Shown piece after piece: positions 1 through 14,635 of a DNA stretch of 14,635 nt; position 1 is the stretch's first letter, and the number at the start of each line of letters is the position of its first letter. This DNA comes from a virus (Duplodnaviria; Heunggongvirae; Uroviricota; Caudoviricetes), in IMG/VR virus record IMGVR_UViG_2693429762_000010, positions 1 to 14,635 of that record. One strand, given 5' to 3'. The notes under the pieces were generated by a model that searched no databases, was not told the DNA's origin, and saw only the letters and a program-made list of their open reading frames with translations. The position numbers and the translations under genes are program-made.

Positions 1-171
1 TCAATAAATCCCATCATTGCGATCAACCTCATCCTTAACCATTGATGCGAGCAGTTCTTCCAGTTTCTGCGCTGATAGCTTTACCTGGTGATCTTCAGCA
101 TCTTCCCGGGCTATTGTGGTTCGCGCAGTGGCTGATTTTGCTGACATCACCACAGGGGGCAGACGGACCAT
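1..171 (-). CDS. hypothetical small protein (48-56 aa; ORF could extend to 282)
   Basis: Minus-strand ORF ending in TGA at 1-3 (window starts on its stop). In-frame ATGs at 145-147 and 169-171, the latter preceded by GGAGG about 10 nt upstream. No recognisable motif; product not recognised. Confidence 0.3.
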   Translation of the reverse strand: MVRLPPVVMSAKSATARTTIAREDAEDHQVKLSAQKLEELLASMVKDEVDRNDGIY

Positions 172-235
172 TGAACCATGGCCTCCGGAACAAATAAGGG
201 CAAAAATAACAACCACTATCGAAAGCTCACAAACT

Positions 236-475
236 AACCGCAGCACGTTCCTGCATACGACGTGTCTGCGGCATAATCCCAATGATTACTCCCTGACAGG
301 ATTTGCAGGCCACTCAATATCAGGTGCAGTTGATGTATCAACACGATTCAACAATACCCGATATTTATTCCATGCCTCCAGCAACGATCTTTCTTCCTCC
401 GTTGCGATTTCCAGATCTACAGCATCCTGCAGTGACGCAATATACTCACTGAATTCCTGGATGTAGAACTGTGTG
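236..475. repeat. direct repeat copy A (3' end of tfa plus downstream stem-loop)
   Basis: About 240 bp aligns by eye with 1284-1524 at roughly 85-90% identity, same orientation. Includes a degenerate copy of the GC-rich hairpin CCGCAGCACG...CGTG(T)CTGCGG. Confidence 0.7.
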
Positions 476-555
476 GTGACGGTCTTCCAGCCATTCGGCT
501 CCTGCTGTATCGAAGCATACCAGGCTATTTCAATATCGCTATGCTGCGGCAGCAT
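286..555 (-). pseudogene. tfa: tail fibre assembly protein C-terminal fragment (tfa', TfaX-like)
   Basis: 89-aa ORF whose last ~55 aa ([48 protein letters not shown]) nearly duplicate the C-terminus of the full Tfa at 1335-1919. The N-terminal ~35 aa are unrelated and the ORF is far shorter than the ~194-aa full protein. Confidence 0.6.
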
Positions 556-582
556 TTAACCCCTTGTAATTCATCGCCATAA

Positions 583-611
583 TTGATTTAATTCACAAAT
601 AAAACTATAAC
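583..611 (+). promoter_or_regulatory. putative sigma70 promoter for the methyltransferase gene
   Basis: TTGATT (583-588), 17-bp spacer, TATAAC (606-611) directly upstream of the ORF. Sequence match only. Confidence 0.3.
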
Positions 612-623
612 ATGGTGAAATCA

Positions 624-1280
624 ATGAAAAAAAACACAGATGATGGGGCTAAAATTTACACACCACTTACCCTAAAGCTTTATGACTGGTGGGTTTTGGG
701 AGTATCAAATCGGCTTGCATGGGGATGTCCTACAAAGGAACACCTTCTTCCACACTTTCTGGAACATGTAGGTAACAACCATCTGGATATTGGTGTTGGA
801 ACTGGGTTTTACCTTACTCACGTACCTGAGAGTAGTCTGATATCTTTAATGGATTTGAACGAAGCTAGCCTGAACGCGGCATCTACAAGGGCTGGGGAAT
901 CAAAAATTAAACATAAAATTAGCCATGATGTTTTTGAACCTTATCCCGCGGCGTTACATGGTCAATTTGATTCCATTTCCATGTTTTACCTTCTTCACTG
1001 CCTGCCTGGAAATATATCTACAAAAAGCTGTGTAATACGCAATGCGGCGCAGGCCTTAACTGACGATGGAACTCTATACGGAGCCACAATTCTTGGCGAT
1101 GGAGTTGTGCACAATAGCTTCGGTCAAAAACTGATGCGCATTTACAATCAGAAAGGCATCTTTTCAAACACAAAAGATTCCGAAGAAGGCTTAACACATA
1201 TACTCTCAGAGCATTTCGAGAATGTTAAAACCAAGGTTCAAGGTACTGTAGTAATGTTTTCCGCTTCAGGGAAAAAATAG
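624..1280 (+). CDS. class I SAM-dependent methyltransferase (YbcY-like by synteny)
   Basis: 218-222 aa ORF on the strand opposite the late genes. Glycine-rich motif I DIGVGTG plus hydrophobic YLLHCLPG block typical of Rossmann-fold SAM methyltransferases. GGTGA 5 nt upstream of the ATG at 624; an alternative ATG at 612 has no SD. Sits between tfa and tfa' as ybcY does in E. coli K-12 DLP12 (from memory). Confidence 0.75.
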   Translation: MKKNTDDGAKIYTPLTLKLYDWWVLGVSNRLAWGCPTKEHLLPHFLEHVGNNHLDIGVGTGFYLTHVPESSLISLMDLNEASLNAASTRAGESKIKHKISHDVFEPYPAALHGQFDSISMFYLLHCLPGNISTKSCVIRNAAQALTDDGTLYGATILGDGVVHNSFGQKLMRIYNQKGIFSNTKDSEEGLTHILSEHFENVKTKVQGTVVMFSASGKK

Positions 1281-1283
1281 CAT

Positions 1284-1524
1284 CCAACCGCAGCACGTTC
1301 TTGCTTAAGACGTGCTGCGGCATAATCCCAATGATTACTCCCTGACAGGGTTCGTAGGCCACTCAATATCAGGTGCAGTTGATGTATCAACACGGTTCAG
1401 CAACACCCGATACTTTTTCCAGGCTTCCAGCAATGAGGTTTCTTCCTCCGTTGCAATTTCCAGATCTGCAGCATCCTGAAGCGGCGCAATATGCTCACTG
1501 GCTACCTGCATCAGGTTGTTTTTT
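1284..1524. repeat. direct repeat copy B (3' end of tfa plus downstream stem-loop)
   Basis: Partner of 236-475; the two copies bracket the methyltransferase gene. Confidence 0.7.
1288..1320. terminator. GC-rich stem-loop between convergent methyltransferase and tfa genes
   Basis: CCGCAGCACGTTCTT / AAGACGTGCTGCGG forms a ~14-bp stem with one bulge and a 4-nt loop, 8 nt after the methyltransferase stop and 15 nt after the tfa stop. No immediately adjacent U-tract on either strand, so terminator function is uncertain. Confidence 0.4.
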
Positions 1525-1919
1525 GTTTCTTCCGCCTCCCGGATCCGGAACATTTTTTCTGCTTCCGTATCCTTCACCCAGGCTGTGCCGTTCCACTTCT
1601 GAAACTCCCCTTCCGGCGATAACCAGGTAACATTTTCCGGTAACGGACCGAGTTCAGAAATAAATAACTCGTCCCCTGACGCTACGTCATAAACCGTTTT
1701 ACCCCGATGGTCTTCAACGAGATGCCACGATGCCTCATCACTGTTGAAAACAGCCACAAAGCCAGCAGGAATATCTGGTGGTGCAATATCGGTACTGTTT
1801 GCTGGCAGACCTGTATGAGGCGGAATATATGCGTCACCTTCACCAATAAATTCATTAGTTCCGGCCAGCAGATTATAAATTTTTATGGTCCGTGCTTGTT
1901 CACTCATTCTGAATGCCAT
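1335..1919 (-). CDS. tfa: tail fibre assembly protein Tfa (lambda Tfa / TfaE / TfaQ family)
   Basis: 194-aa ORF starting [39 protein letters not shown] and ending [11 protein letters not shown], closely matching remembered E. coli prophage Tfa proteins. Its ATG overlaps the stop of the upstream tail-fibre ORF (TAATG). Confidence 0.92.
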
Positions 1920-2850
1920 TATGCAAGCCTCACAATATAGTTAAATGCGATGTTTTTGACGGTGTTTTCCGCGTTACCAGCAGCGTTAACGGTGATGGTG
2001 TGTCCATGTGAACCAATCGCAACGGAGTGCGTATGCGCACCAATACCTACAGTATGTGCATGTGCGCCAGAACTTGCTGCAGTACCAGACAGCGAGTGGG
2101 TATGAGCACCTGCTGACTGTGTCTGAATACGTTGATAATACGATCTACGGGAAGAAGTCCCCGGGCTTACTTGATACTGTGAATCCTGGACATAAGTGAA
2201 CCCACCGCCATCATAAAATGCTAACGCAGAACCGCCGCCTCCTGGCCAACGAATACCATTACCATGAGTATGATCACCGGCAGACCCCGTAGCAAGGTCA
2301 TAGGCTGCCTTTACCGACTTTGGCGTTGCCGCCAGCATTTCAGATGTGCTGTTGGTCGCGTTGCTAAGCTGAACTATCCCTTTCTGTGCTGTCGTTGCAT
2401 CCTGTGCGGTGTATTTCCCGTTAGCCAGCTCATACGCGGCCTTAACGGCTTTTGGCGTTGCCGCCAGTGACTCGGAAGTGCTGTTAGTCGCACTGCTGAG
2501 CTGAACTATCCCCTTTTTCGTCGTGCTCGCATCCTCAAGCGCCACGGCGGATGCAATATCCTCTGCCCGTTTTGCCGCTGTCTCAGCGCGCGTTGCCGCG
2601 GATTCCGCCGTACTTTTGCTCTGAGCTGCCGCCGTCGCACTGCCAGCTGCCTCTGTCGCCTTCGTGGATGCCGTCGTGGCGCTGCCCTTCGCTGCTGACG
2701 CCTGTCTGGTCGCCTCATCTTTTGAAGCAGACGCAGATGATGCCGATGACGCCGCCGAACTGGCGGACGATGCGGCAGCCGTTTTTGAGGATTCTGCGCT
2801 GGTTTCCGACGCTTTCGCGTTCGTCTCGGATGTCTTCGCTGCGGAATCCC
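1919..2850 (-). pseudogene. stf: side tail fibre (Stf) C-terminal remnant, 5' part deleted
   Basis: Frame ends ...[31 protein letters not shown] with the His-rich HTHS repeats and duplicated KGIVQLS(S/N)ATNSTSE motif of lambda Stf. Homology ([12 protein letters not shown]...) runs upstream in-frame to a stop at 2879-2881 with no credible start; the natural N-terminal ~2/3 is missing. Confidence 0.75.
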
Positions 2851-2859
2851 GCTGCTGCC

Positions 2860-2937
2860 TGTGGCGGTGTGAGCCGGATCATTACCGGCAAAAATATGTA
2901 CTTCCGCACGCTGTTCAGTGATGGTTTTCGTCACCAT
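2860..2937 (-). pseudogene. D: head decoration protein D N-terminal fragment (D'), fused out of frame to stf'
   Basis: ATG at 2935-2937 opens [26 protein letters not shown], matching the lambda gpD N-terminus (…GNSDPAHTAT…) from memory. Homology stops after ~26 codons and the stf frame takes over near 2850-2860. Confidence 0.5.
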
Positions 2938-2973
2938 ATTGTTAAAACCTCGTATTGATGTTCAGCACTGACT

Positions 2974-4425
2974 TCATGGCATGGCCATGAGCATTTTCAC
3001 GTCCGCATCACCGTCTTCTGACGCCTGTGACACGCCCCCCTGGACCGCAGCCGGTGAATGGTTCGCCATGAAATGTTCAAACAGGGCGGTTGTGGATGCA
3101 GAGACCGGTTCTGCCTTACCTGATCCCGCAGCCAGCACAGCCCGGGCGCTCTCCACGGTCATTCCCGGGCAGGCAGCCAGCTGTTCAGCCTGCGCCTCAG
3201 CCCCTTTTGCCTCATCCAGGGCCATGATCTGATCACGGAGTGATGGTCCGGCATTCGCCTGCGGTGAAGCAGCCAGGATCGGGCGGGCTTTTTCCACCGT
3301 CATCTCCGGCATCGCCGCCAGCGTTACTGCCAGTTGTTCACGACCGTTCGCTTCTTCACACGCCATAATGCGATCGGCTTCACTCTGCGCGGATGCCACC
3401 GGCTGCTGCGGTGCCGCCGCGGCCAGAATCGCCCGGGCCTGTTCAACGCTCATGCCCTGTTGCCCTGCCAGCATCGTGGCAAGCTGTTCACGTCCTTTCG
3501 CTTCCTGGCATGTCAGGATCCCCATCACTCGCTGGTTCTCCTGCACGGCGGCTTCCGTTGCAGTTAATTGCGGCATAGTGCCTCCTCTGACATTACTGTT
3601 CAGCGCCGTGGCCATCACACTGATGGCATCCGACGCATTGATTAATTCATCCGCCAGCCCGGCCTCAATGCCGGACTGACCTTCAAAAACGGCGGCCTCT
3701 GTTCCCGTGACCGCATCCACAGACAACCCGGTATACATCGCCACTTTTTCGGCAAACATCCGGTGCGCCGCATCAATCCGCTGCTGCATATCCTGGCGAA
3801 CCTCTGCCGGCAACGCTTCAAACTGATTGCCATCCACCTTGTGCGCCCCGGCATAAATCAGCGTGATATCCACACCGGCCTGCGCCAGATGACCGGCATA
3901 GCTGACATGGCTCATCATCACGCCAATGGAGCCGATACGGGATGTCTGGGTAACCAGCCGTCGGGAGCAGGCCGACGCCAGCAGCATGGCTGCAGAACAG
4001 GCCGTGTCATTGCACAGTGCCCAGACCGGCTTCTGCTGACGGAGGCGGTAAATCATGTCAGCGCAGTCAAACGCGCCGGCGGCCTGCCCGCCCGGACTGT
4101 CAATGTCCAGCAGTATGCCCCGCACCTGGCTATCTGCCATTGCCTGCTGAAGACAGGCGACAATGCCGTCATAGCCAGTCATTCCGGAAAATGGCCGCAT
4201 CCCCCCCAGCCGGTGCACCAGCGTGCCGCTCACCGGCAGTACCGCAATACCGTTCACCACCCGGTAAACACGGGCCGGTCGTTTACCTCCGGCCATGTAC
4301 TCGTCCGTTTCAGCCAGCATTCCGGGAGCATCAAGCTGTACCTGCTGTTGTGGTACCGAAAGACTTGCTGCCCCCATCTCGCGCCCGAGCGCGCAAAAGA
4401 AAACCCGCGCATAGCAGGGCCGCAT
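2974..4425 (-). CDS. C: lambda gpC-like head maturation protease/scaffold (S49 ClpP-like), natural N-terminus deleted
   Basis: YARVFFCAL…NGIAVLPVSGTL…GILLDIDSPGG…AFDCADMIYR…PVWALCNDTACSAAMLLASACSRRLVTQTSRIGSIGVMM aligns with remembered lambda gpC, with a repeated C-terminal EEA(K/N)GREQLA motif. Homology begins at YARVFF; the first in-frame ATG (4423-4425) lies in out-of-frame portal-derived sequence, so expression is doubtful. Confidence 0.7.
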   Translation of the reverse strand: MRPCYARVFFCALGREMGAASLSVPQQQVQLDAPGMLAETDEYMAGGKRPARVYRVVNGIAVLPVSGTLVHRLGGMRPFSGMTGYDGIVACLQQAMADSQVRGILLDIDSPGGQAAGAFDCADMIYRLRQQKPVWALCNDTACSAAMLLASACSRRLVTQTSRIGSIGVMMSHVSYAGHLAQAGVDITLIYAGAHKVDGNQFEALPAEVRQDMQQRIDAAHRMFAEKVAMYTGLSVDAVTGTEAAVFEGQSGIEAGLADELINASDAISVMATALNSNVRGGTMPQLTATEAAVQENQRVMGILTCQEAKGREQLATMLAGQQGMSVEQARAILAAAAPQQPVASAQSEADRIMACEEANGREQLAVTLAAMPEMTVEKARPILAASPQANAGPSLRDQIMALDEAKGAEAQAEQLAACPGMTVESARAVLAAGSGKAEPVSASTTALFEHFMANHSPAAVQGGVSQASEDGDADVKMLMAMP

Positions 4426-4552
4426 CGGCACTCTGCGCCGGTGGCAACCACTCCGCCATTTGCCCGCCAAATCCTGCGCCGCCCCCGTTGTAGCTGAGAC
4501 TCTCACGAAGCGGAACGCCGTTCACATCAATCAGGACAGGCGTTCGTTTCAT
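4406..4552 (-). pseudogene. B: portal protein B N-terminal fragment (B'), ~49 codons
   Basis: MKRTPVLIDVNGVPLRESLSYNGGGAGFGGQMAEWLPPAQSADAALL matches the lambda gpB N-terminus (…GGGSGFGGQLRSWNPPSESVDAALL…). Sequence then switches to gpC homology in another frame; start overlaps the W stop in the usual ATGA arrangement. Confidence 0.6.
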
Positions 4553-4755
4553 AACCTCACTCCCAGCGGACGACGGCGACGTCGGGTTGTCCCCAGTACC
4601 GACTCCGCATCATTGATCGCCCGGTTAAGCTCATCCAGAGAAGCCGCCGTATATTCAATTCTGCGACCATCTTTCTGGACAGACACCACCCGTTTACCGG
4701 TTAATAAATCAAGGCGCGCCTGACGCAGCGCCTGTAGTTCAGCGACTGTAACCAT
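4549..4755 (-). CDS. W: head-tail joining protein W
   Basis: 68-aa [42 protein letters not shown]… aligns along its length with lambda gpW (…[23 protein letters not shown]…). Confidence 0.85.
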   Translation of the reverse strand: MVTVAELQALRQARLDLLTGKRVVSVQKDGRRIEYTAASLDELNRAINDAESVLGTTRRRRRPLGVRL

Positions 4756-6379
4756 TCACTCCTCCGGACAGCTTCGCTGCCAGTTCTTTAAGGGTTGGCC
4801 GGGTCGTCTCTTCTTCCCGGGATTTTGCCAGTACAGCCAGATCAAGCTGCCAGCGTTGCACGGACACACGTAATGCCGCGTAGGCATACACCAGGCAGTC
4901 CAGCGCTTCGTTACGCCGCTTTTTGTTATCCCACAGCAGACGCATCTTTCCTTTTTCCCACTTCTCCACAAGCTCTTCCGCGACCAGTTGCTGCGCCTCT
5001 GTCTGCGAAAAAATCTCCGGATCATCAGGAAAACGGATGGCATACGACGTGGCTTCATCCGCAGACGTGGGATCGGCTTTCATACGGGCATAGAGAATTT
5101 CTTTTGCGGTGTCCGTCCCCACTTCACACAGATACACGCCCCGCTGATTGCGGGTTTTCGGCATGGTGATCACCGGCTTGCCATAGACAGATGCGCCTTT
5201 TACCGGCAGCACCCGGAAAACACCGTGTTTTTTTGACCTCTGATAGACAATTTCACCATCGATCCCCCCGGTGTCCCAGCAGACACGGGAAATGGTCATT
5301 TCGGTTCCGTCTGCATGGCAGTATTTTTTGTTGATCGCCGCATCCACACGTAACAGCGTCTCTTCCTCATCGGGACGGCCCATAATGATGATTTTATCCA
5401 CCAGAAAAGCTTCCTCTCCCGGTGCCCATCCCCAGACATACATCTCAAAACGGTTTCGCTGCGAGTCAATGCCCGCCGTCAGATAAACCACCCGGGCTGG
5501 CACCGCCGCCGTGTAATGCACGACCTTATCCATCAGTACCTGGTGATCGAGTTTTTCGCCCACGGCCTCTTCCCAGGTCTCGCCCAGCGTGGTGTTCACA
5601 AAGGTTTTCAGGCCGTTGGGATCTTTCAGTGCATCCAGCCAGTCATAGACTATCTGTACCCAGGTGGTGAACGGACTGTACGCCGTCCAGATATGGAACG
5701 TGATGGAGCGCGGCGGCGGAATTTCATTATCCGCGGCGCTGAAAAACGTCAGACCGTCACGGGTCCACATCCCCGTGTTTTCACAGATCCACCGCCCGTT
5801 GCTCTGGTCAAGCTCAGACTGATGGATCACGCAGCCATGATGTTCACAGAGGTAGAAAACGCTTTCGGGGCTGTCCTTCTCCCATTTAAGGCCAAAAGGC
5901 GTGGATTCATCGCCAAATTTCAGATACTGCTCCTCCCCACAGTGTGGGCAGGGCACATAAAAACGCATGAAATGCGCCGACTCGTTGGCCGCTTTTTCGA
6001 TCTGGCAGGTGCCTTTGATTTTAGGCGTCGAGCCGCGAATGGATTTGGGCCATACAGAGCCCTCAATACGTTTATCCCCAAGCAGGGTTGGCGAACCCTC
6101 TTTTTCGACATCCGGTTCGAACGAGGAAAGTTCGTCATAGCAGACCACGTCCACGGATTTTTCACGGTAGTTTTTAGCGGCAGCCCCGCCCAGGCACCAG
6201 AAGCCCACGCCCGATGAAAAACGTTTCAGCGTGAGGGTATTATCACGATGTTTACGCCCAAACCACGGTGCAAGATCGAGTAAAACCGGCACATCCCTGA
6301 TCGTGGGTTCCACATGAGATTTCATAAAATCTTCAGCAGCAGAACCCCTGACTCTGCCAGGCGGTGATGGTCCTGACAT
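4739..6379 (-). CDS. A: terminase large subunit gpA homolog lacking the N-terminal ~90 residues (Nu1'-'A deletion fusion; probably non-functional)
   Basis: [17 protein letters not shown]…[18 protein letters not shown]…[16 protein letters not shown]…[10 protein letters not shown]…[12 protein letters not shown] closely matches lambda gpA from about residue 95 onward. The N-terminal region, including the Walker A segment remembered near residue 80, is absent. In-frame ATGs at 6379 and 6325. Confidence 0.85.
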
Positions 6380-6422
6380 CAACGCCAAAAATATCGGCCA
6401 GTTTTTTCTTATTGACGTTCAT
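6333..6422 (-). pseudogene. nu1: terminase small subunit Nu1 remnant (first ~26 codons only)
   Basis: ATG at 6420-6422 opens [26 protein letters not shown] (lambda Nu1: MEVNKKQLADIFGASIRTIQNWQEQG…), then runs into a stop after 3 more codons where gpA-homologous sequence begins. Confidence 0.6.
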
Positions 6423-6559
6423 ACACTCCCCCGGGAACCAGAAAGGATCTGAAAATGGCGTTTTCTAACAAAAACAGCCTTTGTCAGATCCTTTTATATT
6501 TTTAAAATTCTATTGATAATCAATCAGTTAAAAAGAAGAAGAACGGATCTGATTTTTCC

Positions 6560-6620
6560 CTAAAAATTTTCATAAATAGCGAAAACCCGCGAGGTCGCCG
6601 CCCCGTAACCGGTCGGATCG
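6560..6620 (-). other. cos site (cosN cohesive-end sequence with flanking cosQ/cosB regions)
   Basis: Minus strand reads GGGGCGGCGACCTCGCGGGTTTTCGCTATTTATGAAAATTTT, matching the lambda left end. The 12-nt cohesive-end sequence GGGCGGCGACCT lies at 6592-6603, about 170 bp upstream of the Nu1' start. Confidence 0.8.
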
Positions 6621-6639
6621 CCGGAAAGGACCCACGAAA

Positions 6640-6654
6640 TGATAATGATTATCA
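6640..6654. promoter_or_regulatory. perfect 7-1-7 inverted repeat TGATAATgATTATCA (Fur-box-like)
   Basis: Matches the TGATAATnATTATCA half-site model of the Fur box; about 37 bp from cosN and 155 bp upstream of the RHH-like ORF. Could be a coincidental AT-rich palindrome. Confidence 0.3.
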
Positions 6655-6809
6655 TCTATATAAGGTTTATCACAACATGTGTGTACGCCATCAAACCACG
6701 AGAAATAATCAATTATGACGCAGGTATCGTATTAATTGATCTGCGTCAAATTAACGTAAAAGCAACTTCAGATAATACAAATCAGCAACACTGAATATGG
6801 GGAAACATT

Positions 6810-6995
6810 ATGTCATCAAAGAACAGAACCCGCAGAACAACAACCCGCAACATCCGATTTCCAAACCAGATGATTGAACAAATTAACATCGCTCTTGATC
6901 TGAAAGGTTCAGGAAACTTTTCAGCGTGGGTTATTGAAGCCTGCAGAAGAAGGCTGTCAACAGAGAGTTCGGGTATGAATTACATAATTAAGTAA
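6810..6995 (+). CDS. small predicted ribbon-helix-helix DNA-binding protein
   Basis: 61-aa ORF with GGGGAA upstream. Pattern RNIRFPNQMIEQINIALDLKGSGNFSAWVIEACRRRL fits the beta-strand/helix/turn/helix layout of Arc/MetJ/CopG proteins. Equivalent small ORF remembered at the lambda right end. Confidence 0.55.
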   Translation: MSSKNRTRRTTTRNIRFPNQMIEQINIALDLKGSGNFSAWVIEACRRRLSTESSGMNYIIK

Positions 6996-7127
6996 CATGG
7001 TGTTCACAGAACACGCAGTTACCGGACACATCAGTTTTCCATTCGCTCCCCGGCAGTACAGGCTTCCCCTCTGACGGGATAGCCTGAAAAAATAACACAG
7101 AAAATTATTTGTTATAATTAATATAAC

Positions 7128-7268
7128 TTACTCAAAAAAAAGCGACGAGAAAATCAGCATCAACGAACAATAAGCGCCAATACGTGATAACAAATGGCAG
7201 CCATATTTATCTGCAGTATAAGCAATGGACAGGATAACCACACCAGAAACCGTCAGCATAAAATCCAT
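7128..7268 (-). CDS. hypothetical small hydrophobic protein (46 aa)
   Basis: ORF below the track's size cut-off found by manual translation: MDFMLTVSGVVILSIAYTADKYGCHLLSRIGAYCSLMLIFSSLFFE, with GGGGAAG 6 nt upstream. One or two predicted TM segments. Could be chance. Confidence 0.3.
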   Translation of the reverse strand: MDFMLTVSGVVILSIAYTADKYGCHLLSRIGAYCSLMLIFSSLFFE

Positions 7269-7618
7269 TTGAACTTCCCCGGACAAAATCGACTCATCTA
7301 AAGATTTACAGCTCTTTTTATTATCAATATGTTAAAAGTAAAATAAACAGATGTTCAATAACACGAATACAAAAACGTGCTGAAATTCAATGAATCCATT
7401 TCTGTGTCATCAATTAATAGTGATAAACATCCGGCTTCTTCCACCATCGCACCGGACAGGCGACTATGAGGGGACAACGCCGCGCTCCGTTAACGCGGTA
7501 AACCCCGGTGTGTATCGTTTTTGATTATCCCCGCACACTCGCGCAGAGGAGTCTCCCTGTCGGGCTGCGGTCTCTGTTAATGAGGGAATACAGCGACGAT
7601 ACGGCGCATCAACAAAAC

Positions 7619-8077
7619 TTATTTCAGGCACTGAGTGCGGATATAGTCCTGTGCCCCTTCCAGTTGCTTGTGCATCGTCATCAGCCGCTCTCTGAGGGTG
7701 AAATAATCCCGTGTAACGGTGTCTGCCAGTTGGGGGCCGGTTGCATTATCCACGCCGGAGGTGGTGGGGGCTTCACGCACGGAGCCTGGACAGGTGGCGT
7801 TGATCCGCAGGCGCTTACGACCAGCGGCAACATCAGCGCGCAGAGTTTCATTTTCAGCTCTCGCATCGGATAATTCCCTCGAGTATTTTGCATCGAGCGC
7901 AGCAACATCGCGCTGGCGCACCTGCATATCAGTAATGGTTGCGTTCGCCAGCTTCAGTTCACTGGCTTTGTTATCGCGCTGCGCTTTGTAGGTAATCGCG
8001 TTATCACGGTAATGGTCTGTTGCCATCCACAGCGCACCACAGGCCACCAGCAGAATAACGATAAACGCGGAAAGCAT
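7619..8077 (-). CDS. Rz: i-spanin Rz
   Basis: N-terminal TM segment [17 protein letters not shown] followed by [45 protein letters not shown]…, aligning with lambda Rz. ATG at 8075-8077; an in-frame GTG at 8092 is an alternative start. Confidence 0.85.
7681..7866 (-). CDS. Rz1: o-spanin Rz1 lipoprotein embedded in the +1 frame of Rz
   Basis: [61 protein letters not shown] has lipobox VVSAC with Cys at position 20 and the proline-rich core, as in lambda Rz1. Confidence 0.8.
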
Positions 8078-8088
8078 TCGGTTTATGT

Positions 8089-8220
8089 TCACCCCAGCAA
8101 CCCCGACGAAGACAACATCATCCAGGCCATGGAAAGAAAAAGAGCAACCAGCATTAGTGAAAATGAAATGCCGACAATTACACAGAGGATCTTCGCCAGC
8201 GTTATGAGTTTGTCTGACAT
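8089..8220 (-). CDS. hypothetical small membrane protein (43 aa)
   Basis: [43 protein letters not shown], single predicted TM helix. Strong SD GGGAGGA 7 nt upstream; stop abuts the Rz start region. Confidence 0.4.
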
Positions 8221-8234
8221 GCTTAATCCTCCCT

Positions 8235-9235: not shown

Positions 9236-9550
9236 ATGCATAACGATCAACATAATTATGATTTATGCCTGCAAGCCATAAATGAGCGGGTAAAATCAGA
9301 GTGCCTCTTACTCCTCCCACAAGAACACGATGCAGTAAAATCCATTCAGGCTGAGCCGTATGGACATCTCACACCTGTGACTCTCGGCATTATCGCCAGA
9401 GCATTAACACAGCCCATGCTTATGCGTATTAAGACCAATATAAATAACTGGTTGAATGAAGAATTAAGCTACCTTGATTGTGAGTGGGACAATCATTACG
9501 CAAAAACACAAAAAGAACGCATCTTCAGTCGATTATCCAGCAACAGATAA
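9236..9550 (+). CDS. hypothetical protein (104 aa), opposite strand to the lysis genes
   Basis: ORF MHNDQHNYDLCLQAINERVKSECLLLLPQEHDAVKSIQAEPYGH… with good SD GAGGA 7 nt upstream. No motif recognised. Its stop lies 9 bp from the stop of the convergent 268-aa gene. Confidence 0.55.
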   Translation: MHNDQHNYDLCLQAINERVKSECLLLLPQEHDAVKSIQAEPYGHLTPVTLGIIARALTQPMLMRIKTNINNWLNEELSYLDCEWDNHYAKTQKERIFSRLSSNR

Positions 9551-9559
9551 CGAGCCACC

Positions 9560-10366
9560 TTATATACGCCCTTTCAGATAAGTCATCCCCGGCTGCATCC
9601 AGTCAACAGGTGCTTTCTTAAAGGGCGTATTATCAAAATCACGCAGAAGAGCCTCCAGCACAACTGCATCATTGTCAGCACCACTGGCCATCATTTCAAT
9701 CTCAGCTGCTACCTGCAGATATCCCATGCAACGACCAATGCGCTTCATCAGCCCCTGCTTTTTATTGTTCTTCAGGTAATCAATGGCAAATTCAATGAGC
9801 GCCTCACTATGCTGGTGCGATGGCGGTGTTAATTTCCCATTTTCTGAGATGGTTATTTTCCCGCCATCTCCGTATACAACAAAGGATGGCCGGTTACACT
9901 CCCATTCCTGATCTTTATCAGGTGCAGACGCAATAAAATAACGTTTATTTCCTTCCTCTCCGGCACTTTTAACCGTAATGGAGTACTCAGACTGCAGACA
10001 AGACGCCTCTTTTTCTGACCGCAGTGTTGACGGCGGCATCTTCAGAGAACCAGTAATTCTTCCCGGTAGCTTTCCTTTGTAGGTTATCAACACATCCTGC
10101 GCCTCTAAAATTATGGGGCGCTTTTCCGGCAACGGTTCGTTCCCTTCACATAACCCGGCAGCAACATCCATGAAAAACTGCTTCGCCTGCTTTTTCGCCT
10201 CAGCTTCGTAAAACTCCAGCGTGGCACCTTCAGTACGGTCAAGACTAATCGCCACATTTGGCAACAACAGTGACGGATACCCACCAATTTCCAGTACCAC
10301 AGTAACAGTAATCTTATCCGGGTAATTATTTATCCCTTTAACAACCAGTTCGTATTTTTTCTTCAT
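9560..10366 (-). CDS. hypothetical protein (268 aa) inserted between holin and endolysin
   Basis: Long ORF starting 4 nt after the holin stop, with GGGGAGAG SD inside the holin 3' end (translational coupling). Soluble, Lys/Glu-rich, no TM segments, no Walker or other catalytic motif recognised. Confidence 0.7.
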   Translation of the reverse strand: MKKKYELVVKGINNYPDKITVTVVLEIGGYPSLLLPNVAISLDRTEGATLEFYEAEAKKQAKQFFMDVAAGLCEGNEPLPEKRPIILEAQDVLITYKGKLPGRITGSLKMPPSTLRSEKEASCLQSEYSITVKSAGEEGNKRYFIASAPDKDQEWECNRPSFVVYGDGGKITISENGKLTPPSHQHSEALIEFAIDYLKNNKKQGLMKRIGRCMGYLQVAAEIEMMASGADNDAVVLEALLRDFDNTPFKKAPVDWMQPGMTYLKGRI

Positions 10367-12849: not shown

Positions 12850-13185
12850 ATGAAGTGGATTGTGATTGATACAGTTATCCAGCCATCATGCGGAATATCT
12901 TTTTCAGTCATATGGAGTAAAATAAAATTAATAATCTGGTATCAATCGGATGCTTTCTTACCTCCTGAAAGTATATTTACACTGACTCACACAGGCATCA
13001 TGCTCAATAACAAAGTGCTGCCTGTAACCATTTACAACGTAGTACCATTCAATAAAACATTCTGGAATTTAATCAAAAACAGCCAGGAATGCCCTACAAA
13101 TACAGATAACGTATTGAATGAATGCTTTAATAACCGTTGCACTCTGCAAATATGTCCTTATGGGCTAAAACAACAAAGTCCATAA
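12850..13185 (+). CDS. hypothetical protein (111 aa), AT-rich cargo gene
   Basis: Uninterrupted ORF in AT-rich DNA with strong SD AAGGAAA 7 nt upstream. Hydrophobic N-terminus and a C-terminal four-Cys cluster (C-x9-C-x4-C-x4-C). 6 of 13 Ile codons are ATA. No family recognised. Confidence 0.55.
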
Positions 13186-13220
13186 GGAGTTTACTCACAT
13201 CTGACAAAATCAATATAAAC

Positions 13221-13240
13221 AGCCCCTCCGGAGAGGGGCT
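13221..13240. terminator. perfect 8-bp GC-rich stem-loop (AGCCCCTC-CGGA-GAGGGGCT)
   Basis: 35 nt after the 111-aa ORF stop. A U-rich tract follows on the minus strand only (GTTTATATTGATTTTG), so it is more plausibly a minus-strand terminator or an RNA-stabilising hairpin. Confidence 0.3.
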
Positions 13241-13632
13241 GGAGAGTGGCGCTATGTGCCATTGCATGGTGCCGGGTGCCTCCCGGTGAATTCAGTACCA
13301 GCACCTGAATCCGCGATTATCCCATATACCTACTCGCTGATTGCCCCTCCGCACAGGGGGATTCACCATGCCAGTTTCTTTTAACAAACTCCCCGCAAAC
13401 CAGACAACAGTCAACCGCCTGAATTGTGAAGTATTTAAAAATTTCTCCCGCTAACTGATACCCGGCTAACAGTCTGGCGTTTTCTTTTTCAGCAACGGGA
13501 AAGCAGCAACCACCACACCCGCCACCAGCACACCGTCAGCCAGCACTGACATTATCCGGCTGCTGCAATGCCATTCACAAAAACAGTAAGCAATCACTTT
13601 TTACCGTAACCGGTGATAATCCAGATATGTAT

Positions 13633-13989
13633 CTACCCCAGATGAGTAATCCGAAGTTCATCCATACCACAGGTCCTGGCTATTCTGTTGTACTCCTGAA
13701 CAAGAGCAAATAATTCTGAATTAGCCACCATGAACTCATCGCAAACCCTCTGTATAGCATCACTATTCAGAATAATAACGTCTCTTCCCGAAAGACGATC
13801 AGGAGTACAGAACAAAACTGTCAAACGGCTGAAGGCCTTTGCTCGTTCTGCATTGACTATATCAATACGCTGCCTAAGGATGAAACACCCCGACGCCTCA
13901 TCAATATTCACTCTACCCACACCATATGAATGATAAATATTTAATGCTGAAAAAACCATTAGACCGTATAACAAACACTCAATCAACAC
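13633..13989 (-). CDS. hypothetical protein (118 aa), AT-rich cargo gene
   Basis: Stop-free 357-nt frame in AT-rich DNA. GTG start without a clear SD; alternative in-frame ATG at codon 11. Rich in AGA/AGG/ATA codons. No family recognised. Confidence 0.4.
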   Translation of the reverse strand: MLIECLLYGLMVFSALNIYHSYGVGRVNIDEASGCFILRQRIDIVNAERAKAFSRLTVLFCTPDRLSGRDVIILNSDAIQRVCDEFMVANSELFALVQEYNRIARTCGMDELRITHLG

Positions 13990-14173: not shown

Positions 14174-14273
14174 TGAATACCGATAATGGACCGCCATCGG
14201 GGACCCGCCCCCGCACCAACAACCCTGTTATCGTGTCGTCTGCTCTTCCTGATAAGCTAATGGCGGTTTGTGA

Positions 14274-14398: not shown

Positions 14399-14635
14399 TC
14401 AAACGATTAAATCCTGAACTTCCCTGACTGTCTGCTCAAAACGTCCGGTCTCCAGTTCAACGCCAATCGCACGACGCCCGAGCGCCAGTGCAGCTTTTAC
14501 CGTTGAACCTGAGCCCATAAAAAAATCTGCAACCAGGTCATCATCTGCATAGTACGTCAGCGCCGGCCACTGGTTCAGGGCGTATGCGAACGCTTTCGCC
14601 AGTTCTGAGTGTCGCGACAGGGTTTTCATCTTTTC
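14399..14635 (-). CDS. DNA methyltransferase (N6-adenine/N4-cytosine, beta-class), C-terminal part; gene runs off the window end
   Basis: C-terminal 76+ aa with FxGxG SAM-binding motif (DFFMGSGST) placed near the C-terminus as in beta-class DNA MTases. Frame stays open to the window edge. Position upstream of the tRNAs matches remembered Stx-phage layout. Confidence 0.75.
   Translation of the reverse strand, partial: EKMKTLSRHSELAKAFAYALNQWPALTYYADDDLVADFFMGSGSTVKAALALGRRAIGVELETGRFEQTVREVQDLIV

Follow-up and report, generated by a model that had tools for sequence, protein, structure and literature searches.

Among the known prophages of Escherichia coli K-12, DLP12 (essD-rrrD-rzpD-...-ylcI-nohD-aaaD-tfaD-ybcY-tfaX) is a lambdoid remnant from which the head and tail genes have been deleted, and Qin (essQ-ydfR-rrrQ-rzpQ-...-ynfO-nohA-stfQ-tfaQ-pinQ) carries a packaging-gene fragment fused straight to a 3' fragment of stf, followed by tfa. 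The element described here, which lies in a window of 14,635 nucleotides (the whole stretch of DNA analysed), is likewise a lambdoid remnant without most of its head and tail genes, and its gene order is shared with DLP12. Common to both are a class II holin, a lysozyme, Rz/Rz1, an opposite-strand DUF3950 (YlcI/YnfO) gene, cos/Nu1 and an A fragment, and the shared order continues with tfa, an opposite-strand SAM methyltransferase and a second tfa fragment.

Unlike DLP12, the element has head genes of the phage 21 type. With 95-97% DNA identity, A, W, B', 'C and D' are collinear with genes 2, 3, 4, 5 and the decoration gene of phage 21 (OL657228.1; genes 1, 2, 3, 4, 5/6 and shp), with which the element also shares its holin type and nested scaffold gene. 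In contrast, Nu1' and the interval between cos and Nu1 have no phage 21 match at the megablast level (the match stops at window position 6343), whereas the prophages of E. coli CH4796 and TW14425 do match there; the stf/tfa arm bears no relation to its phage 21 counterpart. The closest complete-genome relative over the whole window is the defective lambdoid prophage of TW14425 (NZ_CP127265.1, 1-17302), which has the same tfa'-methyltransferase-tfa right end, head genes and lysis region (99.3% over 6343-8223).

The segment 1919-6422 is most probably (probability about 0.88) the morphogenesis end of a lambdoid prophage, now defective, whose head genes are of the phage 21 type and which lies in the E. 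coli chromosome. Its decay, within a narrow E. coli lineage, would have taken at least four separate deletions, each with 2-3 bp of microhomology at the join. We mapped the junctions against the intact prophage of CH4796 (L001), which is 99.8-99.9% identical with gap-free flanks, and stf against the stf gene of E. coli AZ155 (L004). On the minus strand the late operon reads S, R, Rz, cos, Nu1', 'A, W, B', 'C, D', 'stf, tfa, with the following features (window coordinates):

6592-6603, minus strand: cosN cohesive-end site, GGGCGGCGACCT, an exact single match
6343-6422, minus strand: Nu1', small terminase fragment, first 26 codons plus 2 nt
6343-6344: Nu1'-'A junction, 2-bp microhomology AA, 765 bp lost (L001 14010-14774)
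4739-6344, minus strand: 'A, large terminase without residues 1-108, resuming at residue 109
4549-4755, minus strand: W, head-tail joining / head completion gene, intact, its protein identical to the CH4796 copy
4412-4552, minus strand: B', portal fragment, first 46-47 codons
4412-4414: B'-'C junction, 3-bp microhomology TAG (coding strand CTA), 1,509 bp lost (L001 10571-12079)
2974-4414, minus strand: 'C, S49 prohead protease/scaffold gene without codons 1-22, its own start and its ribosome site
2974-3576, minus strand: nested Nu3-like scaffolding gene, 200 aa, intact, with its own GGAGG ribosome site
2845-2937, minus strand: D', head decoration gene fragment (phage 21 SHP type), first 31 codons
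2845-2846: D'-'stf junction, 2-bp microhomology AA, joining Stf at about codon 355 of 991
1919-2846, minus strand: 'stf, side tail fibre fragment, 308 codons, without its own start codon, with Phage_fiber_2 repeats
2290-2292: stf-internal junction (the fourth deletion), 3-bp microhomology TAG, 984 bp lost (L004 6444-7427)
1335-1919, minus strand: tfa, tail fibre assembly gene, intact, 194 aa

A first-pass annotation, made from the sequence alone, had proposed three of these junctions, Nu1'-'A, B'-'C and D'-'stf. Alignment to CH4796 and AZ155 yielded exact endpoints and microhomologies, and all three proved real and within a few bases of where they had been placed; against CH4796 the alignment is collinear and gap-free on both sides of each break. 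The N-terminal fragments are indeed homologous to Nu1, B and D, and the Nu1, A, W, B, C, D, Stf and Tfa homology of the fragments was confirmed by Pfam matches together with DNA identity (95-97% to phage 21, 99.8-99.9% to intact E. coli prophages). The count of three, however, was one short, since the junction within stf had been overlooked. That deletion removes 328 codons in frame relative to AZ155 stf, and because of it only 308 Stf codons (31%) are left.

At the Nu1'-'A junction, the annotated retention of about 26 Nu1 codons and the loss of the Walker A region both held, but A is joined at residue 109 rather than near 95. Since A resumes at residue 109, its Walker A loop is gone; in intact A this stretch (K76-SARVGYT-83) falls inside the deleted part, which also includes the Nu1-binding end, while what remains of the ATPase domain is open, as is the entire nuclease domain. 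Consistent with this, the Pfam match to GpA_ATPase covers only profile positions 67-247 of 247, and that to GpA_nuclease covers 3-286 of 294. 'A is thus a truncated member of the gpA-type large terminases (Walker A ATPase plus nuclease) and is predicted to be non-functional. Past the junction, the Nu1' frame reads three more codons (F-C-C) to a TGA at 6335-6333, giving a 29-aa peptide, and the first in-frame ATG of 'A, Met115 at 6325, lies 7 nt beyond this stop codon. On the lysis side, the CH4796 alignment is unbroken across window 6343-8053, and the collinearity of the region from cos to the Nu1 start with intact prophages indicates that cos survives.

For B'-'C, the restart of C at YARVFF (from Tyr23), out of frame with B', was as annotated, whereas B' keeps 46-47 codons instead of about 49. 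The CCTG suggested as microhomology was rejected, the exact common bases being CTA on the coding strand, embedded in an imperfect 11/15 match. The B' reading frame continues out of frame to a stop at 4331, and the resulting 73-aa ORF is found in four assemblies. Candidate new starts for 'C within B-derived sequence are GTG 4506 and ATG 4425, and gene callers picked 483- or 467-aa versions of it. The gene nested in 'C is also annotated in phage 21, at 5309-5911.

The D'-'stf junction was likewise real, but D' retains 31 codons and not about 26, and the break falls at 2845-2846 and not at 2850-2860. Here the D' reading frame runs out of frame through stf to 2506 as 143 aa of Arg-rich nonsense, found in eight contigs, and the 'stf frame is open from 2878. 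This deletion takes out E, FI, FII, Z, U, V, G, T, H, M, L, K, I, J and lom as well as the first ~355 stf codons, a loss of ~15 kb (15.4 kb by extrapolation on CH4796). AZ155 was rejected as an intact parent at the same locus, in that only its stf-tfa-methyltransferase end is shared (99.5-99.8%) and its heads are lambda/Qin-type; the size of the D'-'stf deletion can therefore only be estimated. The head genes resemble those of CH4796/TW14425 and stf-tfa resembles that of AZ155, and the loss could exceed 15 kb, for example through a deletion across tandem prophages.

The reading frame is lost at every one of the three inter-gene junctions, and no meaningful chimera is therefore made. On the same ground, in-frame chimeras of Nu1 with A, B with C and D with Stf were rejected, and the annotated fusion of gene fragments does not hold as an in-frame fusion in any of the three cases. 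The predicted junction products would instead be the 29-aa Nu1', 73-aa B' and 143-aa D'-nonsense peptides. Microhomology of at least 2 bp was present at four of four junctions, for which the chance expectation under random blunt joining is p ~6e-4. As a separate observation, each of the three deletions that can be measured exactly has a length divisible by 3 (chance 1/27).

We compared the gene content with that of intact relatives, which carry the full Nu1-A-W-B-C-D-E...J-lom-stf-tfa set. Absent from the element are Nu1 residues 27-182, A 1-108, B 48-530, E through J and the 5' part of stf. The first-pass list of losses (the terminase ATPase N-terminus, portal, capsid and tail) was accordingly upheld, with the small terminase to be added. 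Its list of survivors (W, tfa, the lysis cassette, nanS-p and the tRNAs) was also recovered in the window; cos and the nested scaffold gene are intact, as are W, tfa and the lysis cassette. The retained genes are homologous to and collinear with a lambdoid late operon in the order lysis, cos, terminase, head, tail fibre. Integration into the chromosome is evident from window-identical contigs that run into yciE, yciF, yciG and trpA-E on the tfa side; in the other direction the window ends at an IS66-like fragment. Only 26 residues of the DNA-binding domain remain of the small terminase, the large terminase is truncated, and the portal, capsid, decoration protein and tail are gone; virion production is predicted to be impossible, and this loss of virion-essential genes supports the annotated status of a defective (cryptic) prophage.

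Junction-specific ORF look-ups among NCBI drafts returned identical junctions in GCA_001283665.1, GCA_001265625.1, GCA_001283785.1 and GCA_001285345.1. The first of these matches the whole window at 99.986%, and the window differs from the aligned contigs by 0-2 bases each. Junction support here means independent assemblies rather than read pile-ups. Queries of 200-240 bp spanning the four junctions found none of them in any of 5,426 complete E. coli genomes, and the three inter-gene junctions had no exact 32-mer match in one-genome-per-species contigs and/or JGI metagenome contigs. The Logan assembly SRR18080539 carries the D'-'stf junction without the others; in contig L009 this junction is present while B, C and central stf are intact and part of the segment lost in the stf-internal deletion is kept. 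Since D'-'stf is seen alone in one sample, it is the oldest deletion. The first step was thus the large D'-'stf deletion, which took away the capsid, every tail gene and the 5' third of stf, and the Nu1'-'A (765 bp), B'-'C (1,509 bp) and stf-internal (984 bp) deletions followed later. RecA-independent illegitimate recombination or replication slippage may have produced all four, which matches the pattern of 2-3 bp microhomology. An apparent fifth rearrangement, an stf'-'C join in the scaffold L005 of GCA_001285345.1, was rejected as a scaffold artefact, an N standing exactly at the join.

That join, and a possibly chimeric contig (L016), show related drafts to be flawed nearby, and no complete (long-read) genome contains the junctions, as would be expected if the genes were truly full length and the junctions were collapsed repeats or misjoins. 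We give this explanation almost no credence. The same structure in four independent draft assemblies indicates that the junctions are not assembly artefacts; the accession prefixes, CYxx and JHRU, suggest at least two submitters, and Logan adds support for D'-'stf. Moreover, the junctions are free of Ns and lie outside repeats, their flanks being unique phage genes joined at 2-3 bp. An unlikely alternative is that Nu1'-'A, B'-'C and the stf-internal junction arose together by serial template switching in an already deleted prophage. Three microhomology junctions do lie within 4.1 kb of almost unmutated DNA; all four NCBI assemblies with any junction carry both B'-'C and Nu1'-'A; the stf-internal junction is present in the three assemblies aligned to 2290 and, on the separate scaffold L005, in GCA_001285345.1; and no intermediate carrying only part of this set of three was found. 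With only five samples, however, absent intermediates carry little weight, and L009 shows that the process had at least two steps. Inserted or inverted template snippets often go with template switching, and none occur at these junctions.

The first-pass annotation had also called the element domesticated, for which we found no support. Domestication, as reportedly framed by Bobay, Touchon and Rocha in 2014, entails vertical inheritance across diverged lineages, purifying selection and host benefit. The junction-specific ORF look-ups found the inter-gene junctions in only 4-5 samples, all near-identical drafts, and not across diverged host lineages. Compared with the intact relative there are 5 substitutions in 3.5 kb, with one amino-acid change in A (P to S), too few for dN/dS; with so few, long vertical retention and purifying selection are not demonstrable. 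Host selection might nevertheless keep useful pieces, candidates being the nuclease-bearing terminase, W, the Nu3-like protein, Tfa, the lysis genes and the methyltransferase. Defective fragments of the terminase or portal might, for instance, disturb packaging when phages of the phage 21 type infect the cell. The surviving frames are all open (A 534 codons, C 479, W, Nu3-like and tfa), the ATG of A 7 nt past the Nu1' stop would permit reinitiation, and loss of the tail block with tfa and the methyltransferase kept recurs in TW14425, DLP12 and Qin. Yet divergence from intact relatives is only ~0.14%, a span too short for frames to close anyway, the three inter-gene joins are all out of frame, and C and stf have no starts of their own. 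We consider selection by the host improbable. That all remaining reading frames are still open is expected from recent decay and equally from selection.

Two further readings would make the remnant active. A terminase without its P-loop and Nu1-binding end, reinitiated past the Nu1' stop, may poison phage-21-type packaging, and its nuclease and portal-binding parts could be helped in this by the B' stub, W, the Nu3-like protein and cos. If so, which we think very unlikely, the stepwise deletions would be a route to a prophage-encoded anti-phage function and not pure decay. The intact cosN, the intact region from cos to the Nu1 start and the intact lysis cassette would also suit a helper-dependent mobile element, in which a co-resident or infecting phage of matching cos/terminase specificity packages the remnant and adjoining host DNA in the manner of a cos satellite. 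We hold this to be extremely unlikely. Although cos is present, the window (the early region lies outside it) contains no integrase, primase-replicase, helper-derepression or capsid-redirecting genes, the hallmarks of a PICI-like cos-type satellite, and a single cos in the chromosome would need a second cos, or else excision and replication, to yield a unit that can be packaged.

Decay of a lambdoid prophage that has become defective is the explanation we favour. Its deletions are of recent date and restricted to a single lineage; we regard it as ordinary decay, and nothing so far points to use of the remnant by the host. The shortened A, perhaps translated anew from Met115, and the shortened C would be non-functional leftovers, as would the stf fragment, and cos, W, the Nu3-like gene, tfa and the lysis cassette probably persist through the recency of decay and not through selection. 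The significance is small beyond bookkeeping: the element shows, resolved to the base, the dismantling of a lambdoid prophage by a big deletion of the tail block and then small microhomology deletions, each costing another essential packaging function, at a small-deletion rate comparable to that of point substitution. It also carries a warning for annotation, the 528-aa "terminase", the 483-aa "S49 peptidase" and the 143-aa and 73-aa ORFs being truncation products. Greater importance would follow only if the truncated packaging proteins interfere with related phages.

DLP12 has a full-length Nu1 homologue, nohD, and has lost everything from early A to tfa as a single gap; the element, in contrast, retains W, the greater part of both A and C, Nu3 and a third of stf, and its losses are spread over four deletions. 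In K-12 ybcY is a pseudogene, whereas the element has an intact methyltransferase of 222 aa. DLP12 lies at ~565-586 kb of the K-12 chromosome, while the element adjoins yciE-yciG/trp, a site at which the AZ155 prophage abuts a truncated ompW. TW14425 has also lost the capsid-to-stf block, independently, from E codon 50 to the last ~35 stf codons at 6 bp of microhomology, but unlike the element it keeps Nu1, A, B, C and D intact. The head-to-stf deletion of Qin is of the same kind as D'-'stf here and E'-'stf in TW14425. Its left breakpoint lies in or just past Nu1, with no A, W, B, C or D remnants and with the pin invertase downstream, whereas that of the element lies in D. The element offers an analogue, at an earlier stage, of the architectures seen in DLP12 and Qin of K-12.

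The window carries the late arm of a lambdoid prophage. All genes concerned here lie on the minus strand, and the features of the arm are listed below from the highest coordinates to the lowest (X' denotes a retained 5' gene fragment, and 'X a retained 3' fragment).

Two tRNAs
nanS-p-type esterase (DUF1737 and SASA)
Class II holin, phage-21-type
DUF1327 gene
Lysozyme
Rz/Rz1
DUF3950 gene, on the strand opposite to the late genes
6592-6603, cosN
Nu1', 'A, W, B', 'C, D', 'stf and tfa, minus strand
612-1280, plus strand, intact class I SAM methyltransferase of 222 aa
Second tfa fragment, beyond the methyltransferase

Two copies of the tfa 3' end (236-451 and 1286-1500, 89% identity) flank the methyltransferase, which lies on the opposite strand. 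Two Rfam models scored above their gathering thresholds, both on the minus strand: IS009 within tfa coding sequence (1378-1576) and, between an iraM-like ORF and the tRNAs (13211-13400), the sRNA STnc100. Three ORFs embedded in the late region, at 9236-9550 (plus), 12850-13185 (plus) and 13633-13989 (minus), have no Pfam match and are possible moron cargo; the second is the counterpart of a gene annotated as anti-adapter IraM in the E. coli TW14425 prophage. At about 14174-14273 (minus), relatives carry three tRNAs (Ile/Met-CAT, Arg, Arg), of which two are callable in the window; in the middle one the acceptor ends survive but the anticodon arm is rewritten, and it is detected by neither ARAGORN nor Rfam. 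In a 76-aa ORF at the far end (14399-14635), part of an IS66-family transposase (Pfam profile positions 222-250) is fused with the final ~47 codons of a phage DNA methyltransferase. The window ceases to be homologous to intact prophages at 14540, and a matching draft contig terminates exactly at the window end; the breakpoint near 14540 is a fifth one, and conceals the prophage early region.

We set this arm against three reference sequences: E. coli CH4796, whose prophage is intact; TW14425 (NZ_CP127265.1), whose prophage is defective and differently deleted; and, for the stf-tfa arm, E. coli AZ155. A megablast search with positions 1300-6700 showed 95-97% identity to phage 21 and related phages across A-W-B-C-D, and 99.8-99.9% to many E. 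coli prophages, the latter invariably in several pieces over a longer subject stretch. Against CH4796, positions 2845-4414, 4406-6344 and 6343-8053 each aligned without gaps, with 1, 4 and 47 mismatches, respectively, and AZ155 stf matched 1-2292 at 99.8% and 2286-2846 at 99.5%. The first-pass annotation had proposed three deletion junctions and called for alignment to intact prophages. Such alignments, run against CH4796 and AZ155, mapped the endpoints and microhomologies; together with base-level displays and recurrence in other assemblies, the gap-free CH4796 alignments establish that all three junctions exist, within a few bases of the positions proposed. The set was incomplete, as AZ155 stf adds a fourth.

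6343-6344, Nu1'-'A junction, shared bases AA, 765 bp lost (base-level map against CH4796)
4412-4414, B'-'C junction, shared bases TAG (CTA on the coding strand) in an 11/15 imperfect match, 1,509 bp lost
2845-2846, D'-'stf junction, shared bases AA, ~15.4 kb lost, a size extrapolated on CH4796
2290-2292, stf-internal junction, shared bases TAG, 984 bp (328 codons, in frame) absent relative to AZ155 stf

At the Nu1'-'A junction, Nu1 ends after 26 codons plus 2 nt, matching the ~26 first estimated, and A restarts at residue 109 rather than 95. Since the P-loop KSARVGYT occupies residues 76-83 of the intact A protein, it has been deleted, as had been claimed for the Walker A region; by Pfam, the gpA ATPase domain is cut to profile positions 67-247, and the nuclease domain is complete. 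Past the junction, Nu1' reads three more codons (F-C-C) out of frame and stops at TGA 6335-6333 as a 29-aa peptide. In the A frame, ATG first occurs 7 nt downstream of this stop (Met115, at 6325), so that translation of A by reinitiation there is conceivable.

At the B'-'C junction, B keeps 46-47 codons (49 had been counted) and C resumes at Tyr23 (YARVFF), out of frame from B' as originally read; the B' ORF continues to 4331 and encodes 73 aa. The shared bases are the TAG listed here, not the CCTG first suggested. 'C has neither a start nor a ribosome site of its own, and gene callers in other assemblies chose 483- or 467-aa forms. The nested Nu3-like scaffold gene (2974-3576) retains its GGAGG site and ATG, and W is unchanged.

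The D'-'stf loss takes E, FI, FII, Z, U, V, G, T, H, M, L, K, I, J and lom together with the 5' part of stf, leaving 31 codons of D (26 had been estimated) and an Stf that restarts near codon 355 of 991. Beyond the junction, D' is read out of frame into alanine-rich stf sequence, and the resulting arginine-rich ORF, 143 aa in all, ends at 2506. No stop interrupts the 'stf frame from 2878 onward, and its first start codon is a GTG at 2545. With the stf-internal deletion, just 308 Stf codons are left. None of the three junctions first proposed makes an in-frame fusion. The exactly sizable deletions (765, 1,509 and 984 bp) are all multiples of 3, with a chance of 1/27; two of them join different frames.

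That the junctions are assembly artefacts is very unlikely, because the junction ORFs recur in NCBI and Logan assemblies and the matching contigs carry no Ns at the junctions. Exact-sequence look-up placed the 143-aa D' ORF on eight contigs, the 73-aa B' ORF on seven and the 528-aa 'A ORF on five, from GCA_001283665.1, GCA_001265625.1, GCA_001283785.1 and GCA_001285345.1 at NCBI and, for the D' ORF only, the Logan contig of SRR18080539. CYBX01000015.1 (GCA_001283665.1) matched the entire window with 2 mismatches, and JHRU01000012.1 carries positions 1-6964 in a single piece. Matching contigs place the element beside yciE-yciF-yciG and trpA-E. None of the four junctions occurs in 5,426 complete E. 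coli genomes, and exact-match scans of species-representative genomes and metagenome contigs for the three inter-gene junctions returned none. Two related draft contigs differ in structure. One (L005, from GCA_001285345.1) joins the stf 5' part to mid-C at position 9296 over a single N, a scaffold join that we rejected as a real structure. The other (L016) departs within W (window 4597), near its position 10026, into a J C-terminus-lom-fibre-NleB/SseK module; the contig is chimeric, or else it belongs to a second prophage that has A-W in common.

The SRR18080539 contig also bears on the order of events. It has the identical D'-'stf junction, yet its portal and protease are full-length (530 and 501 aa) and it retains stf sequence deleted in the window, so D'-'stf predates both B'-'C and the stf-internal deletion. 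Compared with AZ155, its stf is missing 273 bp (91 codons) of the tandem Phage_fiber_2 repeat region (contig positions 3713-3714 against 7284-7556 of the AZ155 arm), suggestive of variation in repeat copy number and not of a microhomology deletion. Exact microhomology at the four junctions is 2, 3, 2 and 3 bp; random blunt joining would give a mean of 0.67 bp, with a computed probability of ~6e-4 that all four reach at least 2 bp. Short-homology illegitimate recombination and replication slippage are established routes to deletion, and the microhomology fits an origin by either. Just 5 substitutions separate the junction flanks from the intact prophage over 3.5 kb, so the deletions are recent and accrued about as fast as substitutions.

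With essential head, tail and packaging genes deleted, the element is a cryptic prophage, as first proposed, and a well-known kind of ordinary prophage decay. Calling it domesticated is not justified: under criteria reportedly those of Bobay and colleagues (2014), it shows neither deep vertical distribution nor measurable purifying selection. It is highly improbable that the truncated terminase and portal fragments beside the intact cos interfere with packaging.

Unlike the window, the sister prophage of TW14425 keeps Nu1, A, W, B, C and D intact. It carries its own deletion, which begins at E codon 50 and extends as far as the final ~35 codons of stf across a 6-bp microhomology (1711-1716 of the TW14425 sequence); being independent of D'-'stf, this means that the tail block was lost twice in sister prophages. 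The head genes are of the same type as those of phage 21, whereas the Nu1 N-terminus and cos-to-Nu1 interval (positions 6343-6610) have no megablast match to phage 21: matching stops at 6343, and Nu1 starts ~7 bp farther from cosN than it does there. This sequence comparison suggests a cosB/Nu1 specificity module different from that of phage 21. The same architecture, further decayed, is found in K-12 in DLP12 (essD-rrrD-rzpD ... ylcI-nohD-aaaD-tfaD-ybcY-tfaX) and Qin (essQ-rrrQ-rzpQ ... ynfO-nohA-stfQ-tfaQ). The tfaD-ybcY-tfaX order of DLP12 is the tfa-methyltransferase-tfa layout of the window, although ybcY is a pseudogene in K-12 and the methyltransferase here is intact. The element is a less eroded analogue of DLP12 and Qin with phage-21-type head genes.
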